Assembly: GCA_964570795.1 (NCBI GenBank)
Contig: CAZMYZ010000001.1
Coordinates: 42,722-106,721 of the forward strand
Direction of reading: 5' to 3'
Length of the DNA: 64,000 bases
Source of the DNA: an uncultured Candidatus Saccharibacteria bacterium
GTDB taxonomy: Bacteria; Patescibacteriota; Minisyncoccia; Phycocordibacterales; UBA918
The position numbers and the translations under genes were made by a program. Below the pieces are notes generated by a model. It made no database searches. It saw only the letters and a list, made by a program, of their open reading frames with translations, and had not been told where the DNA came from. Every line of letters begins with the position of its first letter. Position 1 is the stretch's first letter. Of this stretch, positions 12 through 61,556 are shown in pieces.

Positions 12-296
12 GTGAAAAAATCCGTAATGAGTGAGCAGGAACTCTGTCCCGACTGCTTTAAGGTGGTGGGTGTGGAGAGTCGTTATAAACTCGTATGTTT
101 CCTTGGGAAAGCAAAAGGGGGGGAGACGGTAGGGAAACTCACCGAGCGTCTCGGCCTCAAGCAGCCCACCATTACGCACCACCTCAATGTGCTCAAGTCA
201 GTGGATGCAGTTTCTGTACGTGACGAGGGGAGGGAACGTGTCTACACCCTCAACCGCGACGCCCACTGCTTTGAGGAGTGCAAGATCCCGTATTAA
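12..296 (+). CDS. ArsR/SmtB-family HTH transcriptional regulator
   Basis: 94 aa ORF with GTG start; the PTITHHLNVLKSVDAV recognition helix and GETVGKLTERLGL motif are typical of ArsR-family winged HTH. Confidence 0.75.
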   Translation: MKKSVMSEQELCPDCFKVVGVESRYKLVCFLGKAKGGETVGKLTERLGLKQPTITHHLNVLKSVDAVSVRDEGRERVYTLNRDAHCFEECKIPY

Positions 297-299
297 ATT

Positions 300-1050
300 C
301 ATTCAATGTTTGGTTTCGTAAACCCAACATAATTACTCGAGAAGAAGTTTTGATGGTGTGGCAGTTCGTCTGTCTGAAATATTCTGAAGATATTTCTCTG
401 TACTCCTTTGCACATCCCCAAGTTTTTCTTGAAATAGTGTTGTGGTGAGTATAGAAGGGAAGTTTCTTTTGCCAAGGTAATCTTGATAACTGCTCCATCG
501 GTACTGAAGAAGATATTCTTGAAGGTGTGAGAATTCCAATCCTTGAGTTATTGAAGAATCTCGAACTCGCCATTCTTGCGCTCCCTCAAGATAGTCGAGT
601 GGGTTGAGGTGTATGTAGTGGAGGATATATAAAAAGTGAGCGTCTGTTTCGATATGAATTTTCTTTGTACGTCCTTGAAATAGAGTACCTTTTCTTTGAT
701 ATCGTTCATTAAAATAATTTGCGTATCCAACATTAAGTTTTCGCATGAAAAGAGAGATACCACCCTCTCTACGCTCTGAGAGAAGTAGATGATAATGATT
801 GTGCATGAGAACCCATGCATGTATATCAACCAAAATCTCACGTTCTTTAATTGTGTTATCAGTAATATCACCAGGACGCCGATTTGATTGTGGTGCTGGG
901 TTTGTATCGTTGAATTCATACATGTCGTGTATAAAACGAACATAATCGCCAGAGCCTTTAAAAAGAGTCCGGCCGTCAACACCCCTGTTCAAAACATGGA
1001 ATAACTCCATATGATACAAGTATACATGTTGGGTTTACGAAACCCAACAT
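300..1050 (-). mobile_element. IS200/IS605-like (RAYT-type) element: Y1 transposase flanked by 25-bp palindromic hairpins
   Basis: tnpA ORF 333..1019 is bracketed by ATGTTTGGTTTCGTAAACCCAACAT (306-330) and ATGTTGGGTTTACGAAACCCAACAT (1025-1049); each is an 11-bp-stem palindrome and the two are mutual inverted repeats with one mismatch. Confidence 0.7.
333..1019 (-). CDS. tnpA: IS200/IS605-family Y1 (HUH) transposase, REP-associated tyrosine transposase-like
   Basis: 228 aa; motifs HAWVLMHNHYHLLL (HuH) and GRTKKIHIETDAHFLYILHYIHLNP (catalytic Tyr region) match the Y1_Tnp/RAYT fold. Confidence 0.8.
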   Translation of the reverse strand: MYHMELFHVLNRGVDGRTLFKGSGDYVRFIHDMYEFNDTNPAPQSNRRPGDITDNTIKEREILVDIHAWVLMHNHYHLLLSERREGGISLFMRKLNVGYANYFNERYQRKGTLFQGRTKKIHIETDAHFLYILHYIHLNPLDYLEGAQEWRVRDSSITQGLEFSHLQEYLLQYRWSSYQDYLGKRNFPSILTTTLFQEKLGDVQRSTEKYLQNISDRRTATPSKLLLE

Positions 1051-1103
1051 GTATACACCCCCACCCGCGACGCCCACTGCTTTGGGGAATGCAAGATTCC
1101 GTA
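1051..1103 (+). repeat. Diverged duplicate of the arsR 3' end (C-terminal 17 codons of a second ArsR-like gene)
   Basis: 242-296 and 1051-1103 align over 53 bp with about 6 mismatches; in frame the second copy encodes YTPTRDAHCFGECKIPY* versus YTLNRDAHCFEECKIPY* at the end of arsR. Confidence 0.6.
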
Positions 1104-1151
1104 TTAGTAATAAATCCTCTATTCCTCGAGGCTCTGCTCTGTGTGTTTGAA

Positions 1152-1373
1152 TCATATTTCCCCCACGACAATTTTCTTTTGTTGTGCAAGGTATTCTTCT
1201 GGAAAGATTCTTTTAAATTGTTCACTTGTCATTTTAGAGGAAAAGTGATGAAAAATTTCTCTATCTTCTTCACTCTCCGTATCCTTTCGTTCATCCCAAT
1301 TATTACCAAACGGTGATAGTAAATTATGGCGACTTTTAAGATATTTTATTCCTAAAAAATAAGTCTCAGTCAT
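1152..1373 (-). CDS. hypothetical small protein
   Basis: 73 aa ORF whose start overlaps the stop of the adjacent ORF (ATGA); no recognisable domain. Confidence 0.3.
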   Translation of the reverse strand: MTETYFLGIKYLKSRHNLLSPFGNNWDERKDTESEEDREIFHHFSSKMTSEQFKRIFPEEYLAQQKKIVVGEI

Positions 1374-1567
1374 AGATTCGGAAAGTCTTTTTCTCTAAAA
1401 TAGGCTGAAATTGTGGATAGGATGAATGCAATAGCAAACCATAACCAACTCCACGCCTGTTTAGAAAAAATAATCAAGATAATATAAAAACCTAATGGGA
1501 TACTTGACCAAAGAAGTAACTCAATCAAAAATTTTTTCTTGAGAAAGTCACAAGTTTCTTTTTTCAT
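1370..1567 (-). CDS. hypothetical small membrane protein
   Basis: 65 aa ORF with two hydrophobic helices. Confidence 0.35.
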   Translation of the reverse strand: MKKETCDFLKKKFLIELLLWSSIPLGFYIILIIFSKQAWSWLWFAIAFILSTISAYFREKDFPNL

Positions 1568-1785
1568 AGTTTTGTCAATTAATTTTTTAAGAATCTAGAC
1601 TAACTTAGAGTTTTATAAACCCCTATAATTATTCTATTATAGCACCGATGTGTTTGAATCTAATGGTCGACATCACAAATGTCGACCATTTTGTTTTGAA
1701 ATAAAACGAGTGGGTGCGTGTATATATACATGTAGCGCTTTTGCAACATAATCGCATTGTGTGGCTACTATTCTTCTTAAATACT

Positions 1786-2022
1786 ATGAAAAAAGATACC
1801 TATCCCGTACTGCTTACCATGAGTGCTCTTGTACTTATGCTTGGAGTGGGTACGTATACGTACCACACGCAATCAGTACAAAAAACAGAACAGGCGTTAG
1901 TAGAGACCACTCCCGTACAAGAAAAGTCTGGTGTGGTGGTGACTACTGATACACAAAAAGTCGCTACCCCATCAACAGCCCAGGTGAAGACTCCGCCGAG
2001 TCGGCAGTCGCAGGCAAGTTAG
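1786..2022 (+). CDS. hypothetical membrane-anchored protein
   Basis: Internal start MKKDTYPVLLTMSALVLMLGVG with an N-terminal TM helix and a T/P/Q-rich tail; an intrinsic terminator follows. Confidence 0.4.
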   Translation: MKKDTYPVLLTMSALVLMLGVGTYTYHTQSVQKTEQALVETTPVQEKSGVVVTTDTQKVATPSTAQVKTPPSRQSQAS

Positions 2023-3081: not shown

Positions 3082-4359
3082 ATGAAAAAACCAGAACGAA
3101 ACATCATTGTGTATGTTGCGGTGTTGCCACCAGGTGCGGTGGAGAGTATTCGTGCCTATGAGAAAAAAGAGAAGCGTAAGTTTAAAGTTATGCTCATCCG
3201 CGATGCGCATGAAGGAAAACAGAAAGAAAAAGAATCATACAAAGGACTTGATATTCTCGTCGAATGTGACCTCAATACGCCTGCACGCATCGCGGAAGCA
3301 CTTGCACCCTACCAAGATCAACTCTGTGCCATTACCTGTCGCTCTGAATCTCATATGGCGCGTTTCATTGAAGTGATTCCTCATGTACCATACCTCCGCA
3401 CTCCTACGACAGAATCACTTGTATGGGCGACCGACAAACTTGAAATGCGTCGCAGGTTTAAACTTCTTGCACCACGCTTTTCGCCAAAGTATGCAGTAGT
3501 AAAAGGTAATACGGTAGGTGAGCGCAAGCGCATTATTGAAAAAATTGGTTTCCCGATGATTGTAAAGCCTACCAATCTTGCACAGAGTCTTTTGGTATCG
3601 CTTTGCTACCATGAAGATGAACTCAAAAAAGCCCTTACGAATCTCAGCAAGAAAATTGCTCAGACGTATGTCGAAAACAAACGCACCGAAGAGCCACGGA
3701 TGATGGTGGAAGAATTTATGGAGGGTGATATGTACTCCGTGGATGCATATGTGAATTCACGTGGTGTGGTGTACTTCTGTCCTATGGTGCGCGTACTCAC
3801 GGGGCACAATATTGGCCATGAGGATTTCTTTAACTACCTCCACATGAGTCCAACAAATTTGAAACCCACATCCATCGAGCGTGCCCACGTTGCTGCAGAA
3901 GCGGGTATTCATGCGCTCGGCCTCCGCAACACCACTGCCCATGTGGAACTTATGAAAGTAGATGATGAGTGGAAAATAATCGAGATTGGTCCACGCGTGG
4001 GCGGCTTCCGCGATAAACTGCATCGTCTCTCGTGCGGCATCGACCATTCACTTAATGATATTCTCGTGCGCATGCCCAAGAAGCCGCATACTCCCAAGAA
4101 ATGCAAGGGTTTTGCAGCAACGCTCAAGTGGTACTCAAAGAAAGAAGGGAAGATTGTGGGGCTTAAGGGTATCAAAAAATGCCAAGAACTCGCGTCTTTT
4201 AATGAAATCAAACTCATTAAGAAAGTGGGTGATATGTGTACTTTTGCTCGTCATGGTGGCAAGGCAGTGTTCACTATTACCCTTTTTAATACCGAACGTT
4301 CTAAACTCCTTGCTGATATTCGGCGTGTAGAAAAACTCATTGAGGTACAGGTGAGGTAG
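3082..4359 (+). CDS. ATP-grasp domain carboxylate-amine ligase (second, larger paralog)
   Basis: 425 aa; GFPMIVKPTNLAQS...MMVEEFMEGDMYSVDAYV...IEIGPRVGG give the ATP-grasp B/C subdomain pattern; divergently transcribed from the RimK-like gene. Confidence 0.65.
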   Translation: MKKPERNIIVYVAVLPPGAVESIRAYEKKEKRKFKVMLIRDAHEGKQKEKESYKGLDILVECDLNTPARIAEALAPYQDQLCAITCRSESHMARFIEVIPHVPYLRTPTTESLVWATDKLEMRRRFKLLAPRFSPKYAVVKGNTVGERKRIIEKIGFPMIVKPTNLAQSLLVSLCYHEDELKKALTNLSKKIAQTYVENKRTEEPRMMVEEFMEGDMYSVDAYVNSRGVVYFCPMVRVLTGHNIGHEDFFNYLHMSPTNLKPTSIERAHVAAEAGIHALGLRNTTAHVELMKVDDEWKIIEIGPRVGGFRDKLHRLSCGIDHSLNDILVRMPKKPHTPKKCKGFAATLKWYSKKEGKIVGLKGIKKCQELASFNEIKLIKKVGDMCTFARHGGKAVFTITLFNTERSKLLADIRRVEKLIEVQVR

Positions 4360-35777: not shown

Positions 35778-35922
35778 TGGAGGCGGAGGGATTCGAACAT
35801 TACATGTTCAGTACCCGTTCAGGATAGTTTTGTTCGCCTTAAGGCTCCAAAACTATCTCTGAATGGCTTCGAATCCTGAACAGTCTCCCAGACTGTTCAT
35901 CTCCGCTTTCGCGGTGCTCAAG
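35778..35922 (-). mobile_element. ~145-bp tRNA-3'-end-associated insertion: 20-bp imperfect tRNA-Ser 3' copy plus 124-bp element with GAACATTACATGTTC palindrome
   Basis: 35778-35798 TGGAGGCGGAGGGATTCGAAC is an 80% copy of the tRNA-Ser 3' end at 35923-35943; the intervening 124 bp starts ATTACATGTTCAGTACCCGTTCAGG and resembles the element at 54358-54484; the minus-strand RNA would fold tRNA-like but is not a canonical tRNA. Confidence 0.45.
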
Positions 35923-36007
35923 CGGAGGCGAGAGGATTTGAACCTCCGAGGGCTTGCACCCTACTCGCTTTCCAAGCGAGCGCACTAGACCACTATGCGA
36001 CGCCTCC
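35923..36007 (-). tRNA. tRNA-Ser (anticodon GGA)
   Basis: 85-nt cloverleaf: acceptor GGAGGCG/CGCCTCC, anticodon arm CTCGC-TTGGAAA-GCGAG, long variable arm, T arm GGAGG-TTCAAAT-CCTCT; CCA not encoded. Confidence 0.85.
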
Positions 36008-38407: not shown

Positions 38408-38431
38408 TATAAATGTTGTATAATTTGTAAG

Positions 38432-38745
38432 CGTTTGTGATCGCCCTATACGCTTAGGCATATGGGGAGGAAAGTCCGAACACACACCAGGGAAATCCTG
38501 GAAGGGTAGCGGGTAACGCCCGTCGTGGGTGACCATAGCGTTGCGAACAGAAACGACCCGGTTAAGTCCGGCTGAAACGGCTAAATACGTACTTGTGTGC
38601 AAGGCCGTGTCCAGTGAAATAGAGTTGCTTTGCAACTCTTAGTGTTCCGCACATTTCACCAGGAAGTGCCGCATGAGCGCATTGGTAACAATGCGCCTAG
38701 GTAAATGATCACACTGGTTTTCCAGACAGAATTCGGCTTATAGAC
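38432..38745 (+). ncRNA. rnpB: RNase P RNA (reduced bacterial-type)
   Basis: GGAGGAAAGTCCGAACAC (P4 5' strand), GGTAACGCCCG, CTGAAACGG and the 3' ACAGAATTCGGCTTAT (P4 3' strand; consensus ACAGAACCCGGCTTA); 5'/3' ends pair (GCGTTTGT/ACAAAC); about 315 nt. Confidence 0.75.
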
Positions 38746-38772
38746 GTACAAACAGACGCCCCTTCAAGGGGC
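38743..38772 (+). terminator. rho-independent terminator after rnpB
   Basis: ACAGACGCCCC-TTCAA-GGGGCGTCTGT-TTGT. Confidence 0.6.
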
Positions 38773-45758: not shown

Positions 45759-45794
45759 GTTTTGTGCCCTAGGCAGGAATCGGACCCACATTGA

Positions 45795-45866
45795 TCCCTT
45801 AGGACGGGACAGTTCTATCCATTGAACTACTAGGGCGGTGCATCGATAGTATCATATCAAGAAGAT
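45795..45866 (-). tRNA. tRNA-Arg (anticodon CCU) with atypical T arm
   Basis: Acceptor GCCCTAG/CTAGGGC, anticodon arm GTCCC-GTCCTAA-GGGAT, T arm GTGGG-TCCGATT-CCTGC (two G-U pairs, loop TCC instead of TTC); discriminator A, no CCA. Confidence 0.65.
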
Positions 45867-46509: not shown

Positions 46510-46582
46510 GCTGAGGTAGCTCAGTTGGTAGAGCATTTGTCTGAAGAACAAAGGGTCGGCGGTTCGAGCCCGCCCCTCAGCA
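46510..46582 (+). tRNA. tRNA-Phe (anticodon GAA)
   Basis: Acceptor GCTGAGG/CCTCAGC, D arm TAGCTCAGTTGGTAGAGCA, anticodon loop CTGAAGA, T arm GGCGG-TTCGAGC-CCGCC. Confidence 0.9.
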
Positions 46583-46640
46583 CACTGTACACAGAAAGCC
46601 CCGAAAGGGGTCTTTTCTGTGTACAGTGTGCTGAGGGAGC
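46575..46640 (+). terminator. long nested hairpin embedding the tRNA-Phe 3' acceptor end
   Basis: CCTCAGCACACTGTACACAGAAA-GCCCC-GAAA-GGGGT-C-TTTCTGTGTACAGTGTGCTGAGG, a 23-bp outer stem whose 5' arm starts inside the tRNA acceptor 3' strand. Confidence 0.5.
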
Positions 46641-54337: not shown

Positions 54338-54485
54338 CGCGATACAGGACTTGAACATTACATGTTCCGTTCAGGTTGTATGACGATTTCTTCCGTTGGT
54401 CGAAATCGTCGACAACCTCTTCAAGTCCAGGGCGACTGTTTACTAAAAAAAGCCAGACACAAGGCCTGACTATTTTTAGTAAAAG
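54335..54485 (-). mobile_element. ~150-bp insertion at the tRNA-Val 3' end: 23-bp perfect direct repeat of the tRNA 3' end flanking a 127-bp element
   Basis: GTGCGCGATACAGGACTTGAAC occurs at 54335-54357 and again as the real tRNA-Val 3' end at 54485-54507; the intervening 127 bp starts ATTACATGTTCCGTTCAGG, resembles the tRNA-Ser(GGA) element and holds a long bulged hairpin (GACGATTTC...GAAATCGTC). Confidence 0.5.
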
Positions 54486-54558
54486 TGCGCGATACAGGAC
54501 TTGAACCTGTGACCCCCACAATGTCAATGTGATGCTCTACCAACTGAGCTAACCGCGC
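54486..54558 (-). tRNA. tRNA-Val (anticodon GAC)
   Basis: Acceptor GCGCGGT/ATCGCGC, D arm TAGCTCAGTTGGTAGAGCA, anticodon arm TCACA-TTGACAT-TGTGG, T arm ACAGG-TTCAAGT-CCTGT; no CCA encoded. Confidence 0.85.
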
Positions 54559-60834: not shown

Positions 60835-61172
60835 ATTTGTGGTCACGAGTTACTAACAATAATGAGTCGCTCCGCTCTCATTCTGGTAAGTACTCTCGAC
60901 CCCGCCTCGACTGTTGCAAAACAACATGTCTTCGTCTGTCATGATGGCATGCAAGCAAAGCAGGATGCTCTGTGGTCACAAGTTGCTAAGTAGAACTTGT
61001 ACTTTGTACAAATTCATACTAAGCACTTTTCGACCTCGGCTCGCGGTTCGTCGCCCTGTGAAGGGGCGACTCACAACGCTCCGCCCTCACAGCAGACCCG
61101 CAAGCAAAATTGTTTGCTTGCTAATACAAAAAACACCATGTTGTAACATGGTGTTTTTTGTATTGTCTGCTG
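60835..61172. repeat. tRNA-trailer repeat region (copy 2): tandem degenerate ~85-bp repeats plus two-hairpin terminator module abutting tRNA-Glu
   Basis: 60845-60925 (GTGGTCACGAGTTACTAAC...CTCTCGACCCCGCCTCGAC), a second partial copy 60965-61070 (GTGGTCACAAGTTGCTAAG...CGACCTCGGCTCGCGGTT); 61095-61172 is CACAGCAGAC-[GCAAGCAAA-ATT-GTTTGCTTGC]-[ACAAAAAACACCATGTT-GTAA-CATGGTGTTTTTTGT]-GTCTGCTGTG. Confidence 0.5.
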
Positions 61173-61244
61173 TGACCCCACGGAGAATCGAACTCCGATT
61201 TCCAGGATGAAAACCTGATGTCCTAACCGTTAGACGATGGGGCC
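61173..61244 (-). tRNA. tRNA-Glu (anticodon UUC)
   Basis: Acceptor GGCCCCA/TGGGGTC, D arm TCGTCTAACGGTTAGGACA, anticodon arm TCAGG-TTTTCAT-CCTGG, T arm CGGAG-TTCGATT-CTCCG; no CCA. Confidence 0.85.
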
Positions 61245-61462: not shown

Positions 61463-61549
61463 GGAAGAGTGGCTGAGAGGTTGAAGGCACATGTCTCGAA
61501 AACATGCATGGGGGAAACCCCATCGGGGGTTCAAATCCCCCCTCTTCCG
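61463..61549 (+). tRNA. tRNA-Ser (anticodon CGA)
   Basis: Acceptor GGAAGAG/CTCTTCC, anticodon arm CATGT-CTCGAAA-ACATG, long variable arm, T arm GGGGG-TTCAAAT-CCCCC. Confidence 0.85.
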
Positions 61550-61556
61550 CTCGTAG

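Follow-up and report, generated by a model that had tools for sequence, protein, structure and literature searches.

In the insertion sequences of the IS200/IS605 family, among them IS608 and ISDra2, subterminal hairpins flank a lone Y1 transposase gene, and canonical transposition of this family gives no target duplication. The RAYT-like Y1 transposases are widespread, and their subclass 2.1 (Bertels group 1; TIRYT in Di Nocera et al. 2013) had previously no reported DNA partner. In Table 1 of Quentin et al. 2018 (PMC6006769), TnpA-Y1 subclass 2.1 is characterized by the motifs NH[YF]H, FQ and Y[IV]HLNP, a C-terminal SS and a length of about 238 aa; it is the most IS-like RAYT group (PMC6006769, PMC5581495). 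In REPtrons, such as that of E. coli RayT (PDB 4ER8), the gene stands between cognate REP hairpins, which change together with the protein from locus to locus, and usually one or a few gene copies are present per genome. A direct repeat of the target-gene 3' end on both sides of the element, with the gene left intact, is the mark of integrative elements with att repeats.

The window, i.e., the whole 64-kb stretch of DNA that was analysed, carries a Y1 transposase cassette at the 3' end of an arsR gene, with the following directly observed anatomy:

1–296, + strand: arsR/SmtB-family regulator gene, 3' 98 codons (ORF 12–296; Pfam HTH_5/HTH_20, NCBIfam HTH_metalloreg)
240–296, + strand: A1, proximal copy of the direct repeat, which is the live last 18 codons and stop of arsR
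297–305: 9-nt spacer ATTCATTCA from the arsR stop to the hairpin
306–330: left hairpin, on the 3' side of the transposase gene; one mismatch in its 11-bp stem, loop CGT (+ strand)
333–1010, − strand: Y1/HUH transposase gene, 225 aa (Pfam Y1_Tnp, motifs, predicted fold)
1020–1056: right hairpin, on the 5' side of the transposase gene; core at 1026–1050 perfect, stem extendable to 17 bp, loop ACG (+ strand)
1051–1106, + strand: A2, distal copy of the arsR 3' end; a fragment that is not translated
1107–2059: variable, partly low-GC segment beside the cassette
1152–1373 and 1370–1567, − strand: two overlapping small ORFs in the variable segment
1662–1690: orphan hairpin of another type, in the variable segment
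1787–2022: small ORF in the variable segment
2026–2059: terminator-like palindrome, in the variable segment

The arsR ORF scored 57.2 bits with NCBIfam HTH_metalloreg (cut-off 55) and also matched Pfam HTH_5 and HTH_20. Its 5' part lies outside the window, the start of which cuts the gene (117–126 aa in relatives), and the orthologues in relatives are divergent from nrdD. The 9-nt spacer is kept in all the cassette-bearing relatives (ATTCATCTC, ATTCACTCA) and is missing at the cassette-free arsR loci; locus L092 has an equivalent spacer of 9–10 nt. The same arrangement was found in five independent assemblies, and the junction was 99.9–100% identical in contigs from four other samples (L004, L005, L179 and L180), which rules out an assembly artefact and confirms that the arrangement at the arsR 3' end is real. 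The cassette was missing from 80 arsR-homologue loci of metagenomes (65–95% amino acid identity), and it is therefore an insertion. A search of the region 1–2400 against Rfam gave nothing relevant.

The transposase ORF spans 333–1019 on the − strand, with the ATG at 1010 as the real start. It matched Pfam Y1_Tnp with 28.1 bits (cut-off 23), and the motifs NHYH (His72, His74), FQ (111–112), YIHLNP (Tyr132) and RWSSY are among the invariant columns of 29 homologues, the HUH and Tyr motifs being intact in the window protein. The fold predicted by AlphaFold (core pLDDT 76–91) gave as top Foldseek matches 4ER8 (TnpA-REP), which was the best, followed by the IS608 and ISDra2 TnpA (E 4e-5 to 1e-3); an HUH motif and a catalytic tyrosine on a Y1 fold, which define the HUH/Y1 superfamily, are both found. 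Comparison with PDB by sequence gave no match even at E = 10, either with the single protein or with a 29-sequence profile, and so the classification rests on motifs and predicted fold. The NCBIfam REP_Tyr_transpos equivalog scored 39 bits, below its cut-off of 80. With a dN/dS of 0.11–0.18, the transposase is under purifying selection.

The Y motif of the window protein, YIHLNP, has the class 2 form Y---NP also seen in the REPtron enzyme (PMC6006769), which places the transposase, described in the initial annotation as of IS200/RAYT type, on the RAYT side of the family. The IS200/IS605 enzymes of subclass 1.1 differ in having Y---Q and, according to Table 1 of PMC6006769, a core of about 150 aa, compared with 225 aa and a C-terminal tail here. 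The window protein belongs to a large Patescibacteria branch of RAYT-like class 2 transposases; by NHYH, F111-Q112, YIHLNP, RWSSY and its 225 aa it carries the subclass 2.1 signature, the putative assignment to that subclass being a motif match only, to Table 1 of PMC6006769. Patescibacteria were not found among the taxa given for subclass 2.1 in the sections of that source consulted. Unlike the REPtron enzyme, the window transposase has an 85-aa C-terminal extension. One copy of its gene is present in the 64-kb window, and other genomes have 2–4 diverged paralogues with different hairpins.

Both hairpins had been described in the initial annotation as perfect 25-bp palindromes. This applies to the right one, where 1026–1050 pairs without mismatch over 11 bp around a 3-nt loop and the 17-bp stem over 1020–1056 gave a DNA fold of −17.3 kcal/mol (z = −9), but not to the left one (306–330), which is the reverse complement of the right with one change that breaks one stem pair (−5.8 kcal/mol, z = −2.6). 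A search for further copies, proposed there for the genome, returned none within the 64 kb beyond the two flanking ones (0 expected by chance), in contrast to the tens to hundreds of dispersed REPs expected of a REPtron; the window holds these two and one orphan hairpin of another type. Orphan hairpins were present at about one per 30–100 kb in the loci examined, with few in about 1 Mb of related loci. The window hairpin also differs from REPs in that it has no GT[AG]G foot and that its 25 nt form a perfect palindrome, ATG...CAT at the ends and TCGTA in the middle.

Bracketing of the gene by cognate hairpins, which the same annotation had reported, proved to be a general trait of the family. 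Among 80 GTDB Patescibacteria loci, a hairpin preceded the transposase gene in 69 of 79, at a median distance of 13 nt from the start codon, and followed it in 70 of 76, at a median of 4.5 nt past the stop. As in REPtrons, the hairpins co-vary with the protein between loci: the stems vary from locus to locus and agree within a locus in 51 of 60, with two-sided changes at 10 of the 11 stem pairs and an invariant TCGTA centre. The foot of the window hairpin reads (GTATAC)ATGTTGGG, and the consensus of 82 hairpins is ATGnnGGAnTTCGTAAnTCCnnCAT. Cognate hairpins are thus the rule in this family, whereas subclass 2.1 is reported either without REP-like flanks or with GGGGWSAS inverted repeats; no GGGGWSAS was seen by eye at the element ends in the window sequence. 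A copy of the own hairpin also lies inside the coding sequence, with the frame unbroken, in 68 of 80 family members, as in the in-frame REPs of subclass 2.4 (PMC6006769), but it is missing from the window's own clade. A half-hairpin inside the window gene (894–903) was rejected as such a copy; it encodes conserved N-P-A residues and lies upstream of the internal hairpin position of the relatives.

The single Y1 gene between subterminal hairpins, a 3' hairpin about 9–10 nt from the element end (as in IS608) and a target-like sequence resembling the element's own end are shared with IS200/IS605. The window element differs in having no tnpB, and the hairpins of its family differ in being perfect palindromes with random loop orientation. 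The loops of the two window hairpins are in opposite orientation, so that, if the enzyme reads the loop, the hairpins lie on opposite strands and fit poorly to a simple single-strand excision of the IS608 type. A further difference, also from REPtrons, is the presence of long flanking direct repeats in place of duplication-free insertion; REPtrons differ further in that the window family has signs of whole-gene horizontal movement.

The nucleotides 235–295 and 1046–1106 align without gaps with 54 identities in 61, the first ~11 nt of the alignment overlapping the right-hairpin foot. About six substitutions that keep the encoded peptide had been ascribed to a 53-bp repeat; six were indeed found over the 53 nt, but three are non-synonymous (L>P, N>T and E>G), and the stop TAA is replaced by TAG. 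Over 56 nt, the two arsR ends of this genome differ at 7 positions. The 32-nt core of the repeat occurs only at these two sites in the window, and A2 has no start codon in the arsR frame. The same arsR fragment (arsR') was found at the same junction in L006–L008, in a different host background and with an in-frame stop; in both carrying lineages it starts at the same hairpin foot and comprises the last 17–18 codons only. At the repeat limit, native arsR and the hairpin foot agree in 9 of 12 positions, and the cassette-free locus L096 retains a remnant of 14 nt that, as in the window copy, ends in TAG. No secondary structure beyond chance was found in the duplicated target sequences. In L001, L010 and L031, which have the cassette at arsR, no significant arsR' remnant was detected (p = 0.5–0.7), and losses must therefore be assumed there if the repeat is associated with insertion.

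Long flanking direct repeats recur in the transposase family, as was observed directly at 17–61 nt in the window and in L006, L036, L092, L072 and L078. The repeat of L036 (36/36 nt) is the 3' end of a convergent PIF1 helicase gene, that of L092 (24/24 nt) is the last 7 codons and stop of a MliC-domain gene, that of L072, more diverged, is the 3' end of an RNase R gene, and that of L078 matches at 25 of 27 nt. The four strongest cases scored 21–36 and L072 scored 14, against a 95th percentile of 11 in mismatched-flank controls. The window and L092 share the same geometry, with one copy abutting the 5' hairpin and the other 9–10 nt past the 3' hairpin. The perfect repeats of L036 and L092 show such events to be recent and recurrent in the family. 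About 90% of the family loci have no detectable flanking repeat, and among 19 orphan hairpins tested the flanking repeats were significant only in L096, L034 and L024. An empty site for the L036 repeat was not found among helicase homologues, the nearest being only 84% identical; their C-termini, ...LMR* and ...LMKN*, are both natural ends, which is suggestive for L036 and not decisive. The argument that the 53-bp repeat could not be a target-site duplication since IS200-family elements make none is sound for canonical IS200/IS605, and fails for this transposase family, where long flanking repeats recur.

An island of low divergence covers the cassette. Among four lineages the transposase has a pS of 0.13–0.40, compared with 0.49–0.77 for nrdD, arsR, the RimK-family, ATP-grasp, ApbE and FAD-binding genes and a 207-aa ORF. 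The pair L001–L006 is 91–98% identical within the cassette and 60–91% outside, and L016 and L031 give the same contrast (93.5% vs. 83%). On the left, the tract of low divergence stops at the start of A1, where the differences per 42 nt fall from 7–15 to 3–4. Between lineages, the third-position difference in A1 is 0.18–0.24, against 0.40–0.64 in the rest of arsR, these contrasts resting on 13–17 informative sites per pair as the repeats are short; the same 17 codons differ at 0.51–0.58 of third positions in cassette-free arsR pairs of like divergence. The low-divergence arsR end is also present in the cassette-free L096, and the pair L042/L050 has no clear island. The GC content is 0.37–0.40 in the cassette and 0.45–0.53 in the host genes. 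All structural differences among five related lineages begin at the outer foot of the right hairpin. The low divergence suggests that the cassette moved horizontally, together with the last 56 nt of arsR, into the same site. No relative was found in viral contigs, and the matches in plasmids reached at most 31% identity, so that no vector for horizontal transfer was identified.

In our judgement, the Y1 transposase cassette was probably integrated at the arsR stop codon, with arsR' as the distal member of a long direct repeat associated with the insertion and arsR itself intact; the extra 56-nt arsR end is best read as the footprint of the arrival of the cassette rather than as the remnant of a second gene. 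The initial annotation had favoured the latter, namely a second arsR paralogue to the right of the element, cut short when the region was rearranged or paralogues recombined. The fragment is indeed a recognisable diverged arsR 3' end with the stop codon rightly placed, and the region right of the hairpin is rearranged between relatives. Nevertheless, no second arsR was present nearby in the 80 homologue loci, in the cassette-bearing relatives or in the 64-kb window; a complete second copy in a relative, the finding that would have spoken against truncation, was looked for and not encountered either, and since no paralogue trace was seen anywhere, that negative outcome does not rescue the idea. 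Moreover, the hairpin foot is where the fragment starts in two lineages that differ in their right flanks, and the ends of unrelated genes are repeated at other family members (two of them perfectly). The fragment also resembles the local arsR end more closely than a paralogue would, with an 11% difference, against 15–26% overall among the arsR orthologues of neighbouring species. A truncated paralogue is accordingly highly improbable.

Rather unlikely, although better founded, is an old, immobile and domesticated RAYT that entered the arsR-nrdD locus once in the clade ancestor and then descended vertically with deletions. The duplication would be a one-off, for instance when replication switched template at the hairpin and resumed 56 nt upstream, at the 9/12 microhomology, and slow evolution or gene conversion would account for the low divergence of the cassette. 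Site and orientation are the same in all five lineages, the quartet topology of the transposase does not conflict with that of the hosts, L042/L050 look vertical, L096 has its remnant ending in TAG, and slow vertical evolution, with low substitution rates, has been reported for other RAYT groups (PMC5581495). What tells against such descent is that it needs a 2–5 times lower synonymous divergence over ~800 nt with sharp limits at repeat and hairpin, next to seven nearly saturated host genes on the two sides; that a duplication older than the divergence of the window and L006 cassettes (dS 0.48) should have left more than the 7/56 differences seen between the arsR copies; and that the cassette GC is unlike that of the host and the perfect repeats of L036 and L092 point to recent, recurrent events. 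Integration without any transposase, of foreign arsR and cassette DNA by homology-facilitated illegitimate recombination anchored in arsR, would likewise duplicate the arsR end, through joining at microhomology upstream of the anchor end. It would agree with the junction microhomology, with the reduced divergence of proximal copy and cassette relative to host genes, and with repeat lengths that differ between loci (14–61 nt). It is distinctly unlikely, the left limit of the low-divergence tract being the repeat start in all lineage pairs instead of scattered through arsR like crossovers, the junction being identical in two host backgrounds, the breakpoints lying at hairpin feet in five lineages, and the repeats being tied to the transposase family at unrelated loci.

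If the cassette was integrated as we propose, the transposase would, as inferred from its family, bind its cognate hairpins as single-stranded DNA and cut and rejoin at the hairpin feet, the foot here carrying the palindrome GTATAC. The cassette unit would join beside the look-alike GTCTAC in arsR; the proximal repeat copy would keep arsR whole and the distal one would be a dead leftover. By travelling with the cassette, the last 56 nt of arsR would allow entry into the same site of related genomes with arsR undamaged, either via the transposase or via recombination across the repeat. As no target duplication arises in canonical IS200/IS605 transposition, the repeat requires a step that is not known among Y1 enzymes; it may have been made by filling in a long staggered cut or by capturing a flanking replacement end. 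As with 3'-end integrative elements, the target-gene 3' end is repeated on both sides, the gene is intact and the repeat apparently travels along; unlike them, the locus has no tyrosine or serine integrase, the Y1 transposase being the sole gene enclosed by the repeats. The arrangement also resembles end-bypass capture by IS91/ISCR/Helitron elements, and the likeness to both is one of outcome.

It is conceivable, and put forward here tentatively, that the whole family consists of HUH-driven integrative cassettes homing to the 3' ends of host genes, making or carrying att-like repeats of 14–61 nt, keeping the host gene alive and re-entering the same gene in related genomes, with the start-codon hairpin as a docking point for foreign DNA, loosely like an integron. 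Locus L031, with a 2.5-kb cargo between two identical hairpins, may be an instance. Such cassettes would give TnpA-Y1 subclass 2.1, until now without a partner, a DNA substrate, and would move in a way undescribed for Y1 transposases. In any case, a Patescibacteria branch with the 2.1 signature has a hairpin partner that co-varies with the protein and keeps set positions on either side of the gene, mostly with a further copy within it; biochemical work thereby gains defined oligonucleotide substrates and predicted sites of cleavage. The arrangement may offer very small, gene-dense genomes a route to tolerate and exchange such cassettes, and in annotation such short gene-end fragments beside hairpins should be taken for insertion footprints rather than for pseudogenes of lost paralogues.

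The variable segment 1107–2059 is a possible part of the element. The sequence from 1107 onward was uninformative as a resident arsR flank, the sole homologue of its 73-aa ORF being located between pheS and pheT. The GC content of the segment is 0.29–0.32, against 0.45–0.53 in the host genes, and in L010–L016 the segment is missing, the stop of the RimK-family gene directly abutting the hairpin.

The arrangement of arsR end, transposase gene, hairpins and repeat was confirmed as real by its anatomy, listed below with the other window features, and by contigs from four other samples, which showed 99.9–100% identity across the junctions of the cassette (the transposase gene between its two hairpins) and the repeat.

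12–296, forward strand: arsR (ArsR/SmtB regulator), C-terminal 94 residues, 5′ part lost at the window start
235/240–296 and 1046/1051–1106: direct repeat of the arsR end (last 56–61 nt), 54/61 identities
306–330: left hairpin, 25-nt palindrome, reverse complement of 1026–1050 with one change breaking a stem pair
333–1010, reverse strand: Y1/HUH transposase, 225 aa, convergent with arsR, Pfam Y1_Tnp above cut-off
1026–1050: right (outer) hairpin, 25-nt perfect palindrome, stem extending to 17 bp over 1020–1056
1662–1690: orphan hairpin, 12-bp stem (AATGGTCGACAT..ATGTCGACCATT)
35922–36007, 45764–45836, 46510–46583, 54485–54558, 61172–61244 and 61463–61550: six tRNA genes
38424–38756: RNase P RNA (class A)

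The Pfam match and the comparison of 306–330 with 1026–1050 bore out the initial annotation of a Y1 transposase gene bracketed by hairpins that are inverted copies of each other, although of the two palindromes described as perfect only the right one is so. Likewise, the reported 53-nt repeat with about six substitutions was found, with six differences; the distal copy carries three amino-acid changes and lacks a start codon. The right hairpin folded as DNA at −17.3 kcal/mol (z = −9), and no further copies of either hairpin sequence were present elsewhere in the 64-kb window. In relatives arsR encodes 117–126 aa and is oriented divergently to nrdD/nrdG, the genes of anaerobic ribonucleotide reductase. 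The RNase P RNA and tRNA genes are normal components of a chromosome and agree better with a host chromosome than with a plasmid or phage.

PDB sequence searches with the transposase gave no match. The predicted core adopts the Y1/HUH fold (pLDDT 76–91), and its best structural match was E. coli TnpA-REP in complex with a REP hairpin (4ER8); the IS608 and ISDra2 TnpA proteins came next. The motifs NHYH, FQ, YIHLNP and RWSSY were invariant; together with the protein length they agree with the signature of TnpA-Y1 class 2, subclass 2.1 (Bertels group 1) given by Quentin et al. 2018 (PMC6006769), and judged by these motifs the window transposase appears to belong to this subclass. Assignment to IS200 was rejected, the Y motif being YIHLNP and not the Y---Q stated for IS200 in the same article.

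Homologues of the window transposase number thousands in Patescibacteria (Paceibacterota, Kaiserbacteria and others). In a survey of 80 loci from GTDB species representatives, an upstream hairpin was found in 69/79, ending a median of 13 nt ahead of the start codon, and a downstream hairpin in 70/76, starting a median of 4.5 nt past the stop; the stem sequence was common to both hairpins of a locus in 51/60. Over 82 distinct hairpins the TCGTA centre was invariant and two-sided changes occurred at 10 of 11 stem pairs, the hairpins having been chosen as palindromes, for which covariation counts are informative and pairing percentages are not. Loop orientation, CGT or ACG, was random across the family and flipped between relatives 88–95% identical, at each end independently (window 306–330 and 1026–1050; L001 3963/4683; L006 2963/3683; L010 2963/3702, the L numbers denoting loci of relatives). 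A flip requires a 3-nt inversion and not point mutation, which suggests active processing or conversion of the hairpins.

A third copy of the locus hairpin lies inside the transposase gene, about 143 nt past the start, in 68/80 loci (for example L017 4143–4167, L040 4142–4168, L048 4148–4172, L060 4135–4167 and L095 4152–4186), at a position corresponding to the low-confidence loop 41–55 of the predicted model; it is absent from the window's own clade. The copy is translated in frame, but the frame is not the same in all members (at least two occur, ..VGFRKPNI.. and ..MIDFVNQS..), and it is thus kept as nucleic acid rather than as peptide. In-frame REP insertions are already known for subclass 2.4, according to PMC6006769. 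Two to four diverged transposase paralogues per genome, each with its own hairpin sequence, were also observed (L023/L034/L074/L089 of assembly JBAYHD01; L026 and L055; L038 and L048). At L034 4700–4830 a tandem 69-nt unit, comprising the post-transposase hairpin and a 33-nt flank, is repeated once (28/33 identical). Between the syntenic L042 (4671–4695) and L050 (4696–4720) the post-transposase hairpin is swapped for another specificity type, the upstream hairpin being unchanged.

The distal copy of the arsR end had been ascribed to a truncated second arsR paralogue, and a target-site duplication had been denied. Neither view was sustained, the second, taken to mean that the repeat cannot stem from an insertion, being probably wrong. 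Among 80 ArsR-homologue loci (65–95% identity) no second arsR or cassette beside arsR was found, nor was any other arsR present in the 64-kb window; the fragment consists of the last 17–18 codons alone and starts at the hairpin foot in two host backgrounds. Repeats of unrelated gene ends recur at other members: the L036 transposase is flanked by a perfect repeat of 36 nt that corresponds to the 3′ end of a PIF1 helicase gene convergent with it; in L092 a perfect 24-nt repeat covers the last seven codons and stop of an MliC-domain gene, likewise convergent; in L072 the 3′ end of the upstream RNase R gene is repeated in diverged form; and L078 has a 25/27 flanking repeat. The four strongest cases scored 21–36 and L072 14, against a 95th percentile of 11 for mismatched flanks. 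The geometry of the window and L092 is identical, one copy abutting the 5′ hairpin and the other lying 9–10 nt past the 3′ hairpin. A dead paralogue therefore has no support, and the sequence comparisons indicate that the fragment is an insertion-associated repeat. In L096 (1249–1300) an arsR 95% identical to that of the window occurs without transposase; 6 nt past its stop stands a solo hairpin of another type (AATGACGGACAT CGG ATGTCCGTCATT), then a 13/14-nt copy of the arsR end, also terminating in TAG. Similar CCG/CGG-loop hairpins were seen in the L006 variable segment.

With its Y1 enzyme and cognate single-strand hairpins, the cassette would come closest in its workings to a REPtron or to an IS200/IS605 element, yet it fails defining features of each. 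The GT[AG]G foot and REP population of canonical REP/RAYT systems are missing, and the match to the NCBI REP-associated transposase model (39 bits) lies below the equivalog cut-off of 80; from IS200 it differs in Y motif, protein size and the presence of flanking repeats. The transposase-and-hairpin half of the earlier interpretation is supported by motifs, fold and hairpins at both ends across the family. Subclass 2.1 is described in PMC6006769 as without hairpin partners, no REP-like flanks having been found, whereas the window family has cognate hairpins; this small element offers a system in which a little-understood transposase subclass can be tested.

Five lineages with transposases 88–90% identical share one gene order (nrdD, divergent arsR, 9-nt spacer, hairpin, transposase, hairpin). 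They differ to the right of the outer hairpin, and each of these differences starts at its foot. To its right were found:

Window: arsR fragment, with some 1 kb of DNA beyond it that is low in GC in places
L006–L008: same arsR fragment and junction, then other small ORFs
L001–L003: unrelated 370-aa gene
L009–L016, L177–L178: RimK-family gene, its stop codon abutting the hairpin
L031: RimK-family gene stop, hairpin, 2.5 kb of cargo, identical hairpin

The L031 hairpins (1413–1441 and 3957–3989) are in the same orientation and bracket a 341-aa DnaJ-domain protein and a 285-aa ORF, placed exactly between the RimK-family stop codon and the transposase, where the sister loci L010/L016 have a single hairpin. 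No significant arsR remnant was detected in L001, L010 or L031. Window 1107–1800, beside the fragment, has very low GC (0.29–0.32) and two overlapping small ORFs of 73 and 65 aa, the latter membrane-like; the 73-aa ORF has a single homologue, located in L176 with pheS on one side and pheT on the other. The orphan hairpin resembles those flanking other family members (L025, L093).

Among four lineages, synonymous differences were far lower in the transposase (pS 0.13–0.40, dS 0.15–0.58) than in seven host genes on both sides: nrdD (0.49–0.62), arsR (0.53–0.77), the RimK-family and ATP-grasp genes (0.70–0.76), and ApbE, an FAD-binding gene and a 207-aa ORF (0.51–0.71). In the L001–L006 sliding comparison identity was 91–98% within the cassette and 60–91% outside, and between L016 and L031 it switched at the hairpin (93.5% within vs 83% outside). 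The left limit of this island falls inside arsR, at the repeat start, where differences per 42 nt drop from 7–15 to 3–4. Third-position differences in the last 17 arsR codons were 0.18–0.24, against 0.51–0.58 in cassette-free arsR pairs of similar divergence, which rules out an inherent property of the ArsR C-terminus. Cassette GC is below that of host genes, and the transposase dN/dS of 0.11–0.18 indicates purifying selection. The simplest reading of these four lineages is that arsR end, spacer, hairpin, transposase and hairpin may have spread between genomes after their divergence, to the same site each time. The transposase quartet topology agrees with that of the hosts, the low-divergence arsR end also occurs in the cassette-free L096, and no clear island was seen in the syntenic pair L042/L050; slow RAYT evolution with vertical descent has been reported in other groups (PMC5581495).

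Two origins of the repeat fit the data. Staggered duplication, by a long variable-stagger cut or template-switch re-copying of the target followed by fill-in, yields repeats identical at birth, which agrees with L036 and L092, where the repeats are perfect. Alternatively, a unit once excised with a piece of flank would now carry a replacement 3′ end; this agrees with the low divergence of the proximal arsR copy, with the gene-distal limit of the repeat, which in every case falls within 3 nt of the stop codon, and with L036, where the live ...LMR* and displaced ...LMKN* are both natural C-termini of the helicase family. Insertion would be catalysed by the transposase, judging by its family. The native arsR junction sequence GAACGTGTCTAC matches the hairpin foot plus extension CAACATGTATAC at 9/12 positions. 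This match is compatible with a target chosen for its likeness to the end of the element, as happens in IS200/IS605; a join guided by microhomology would also agree with it.
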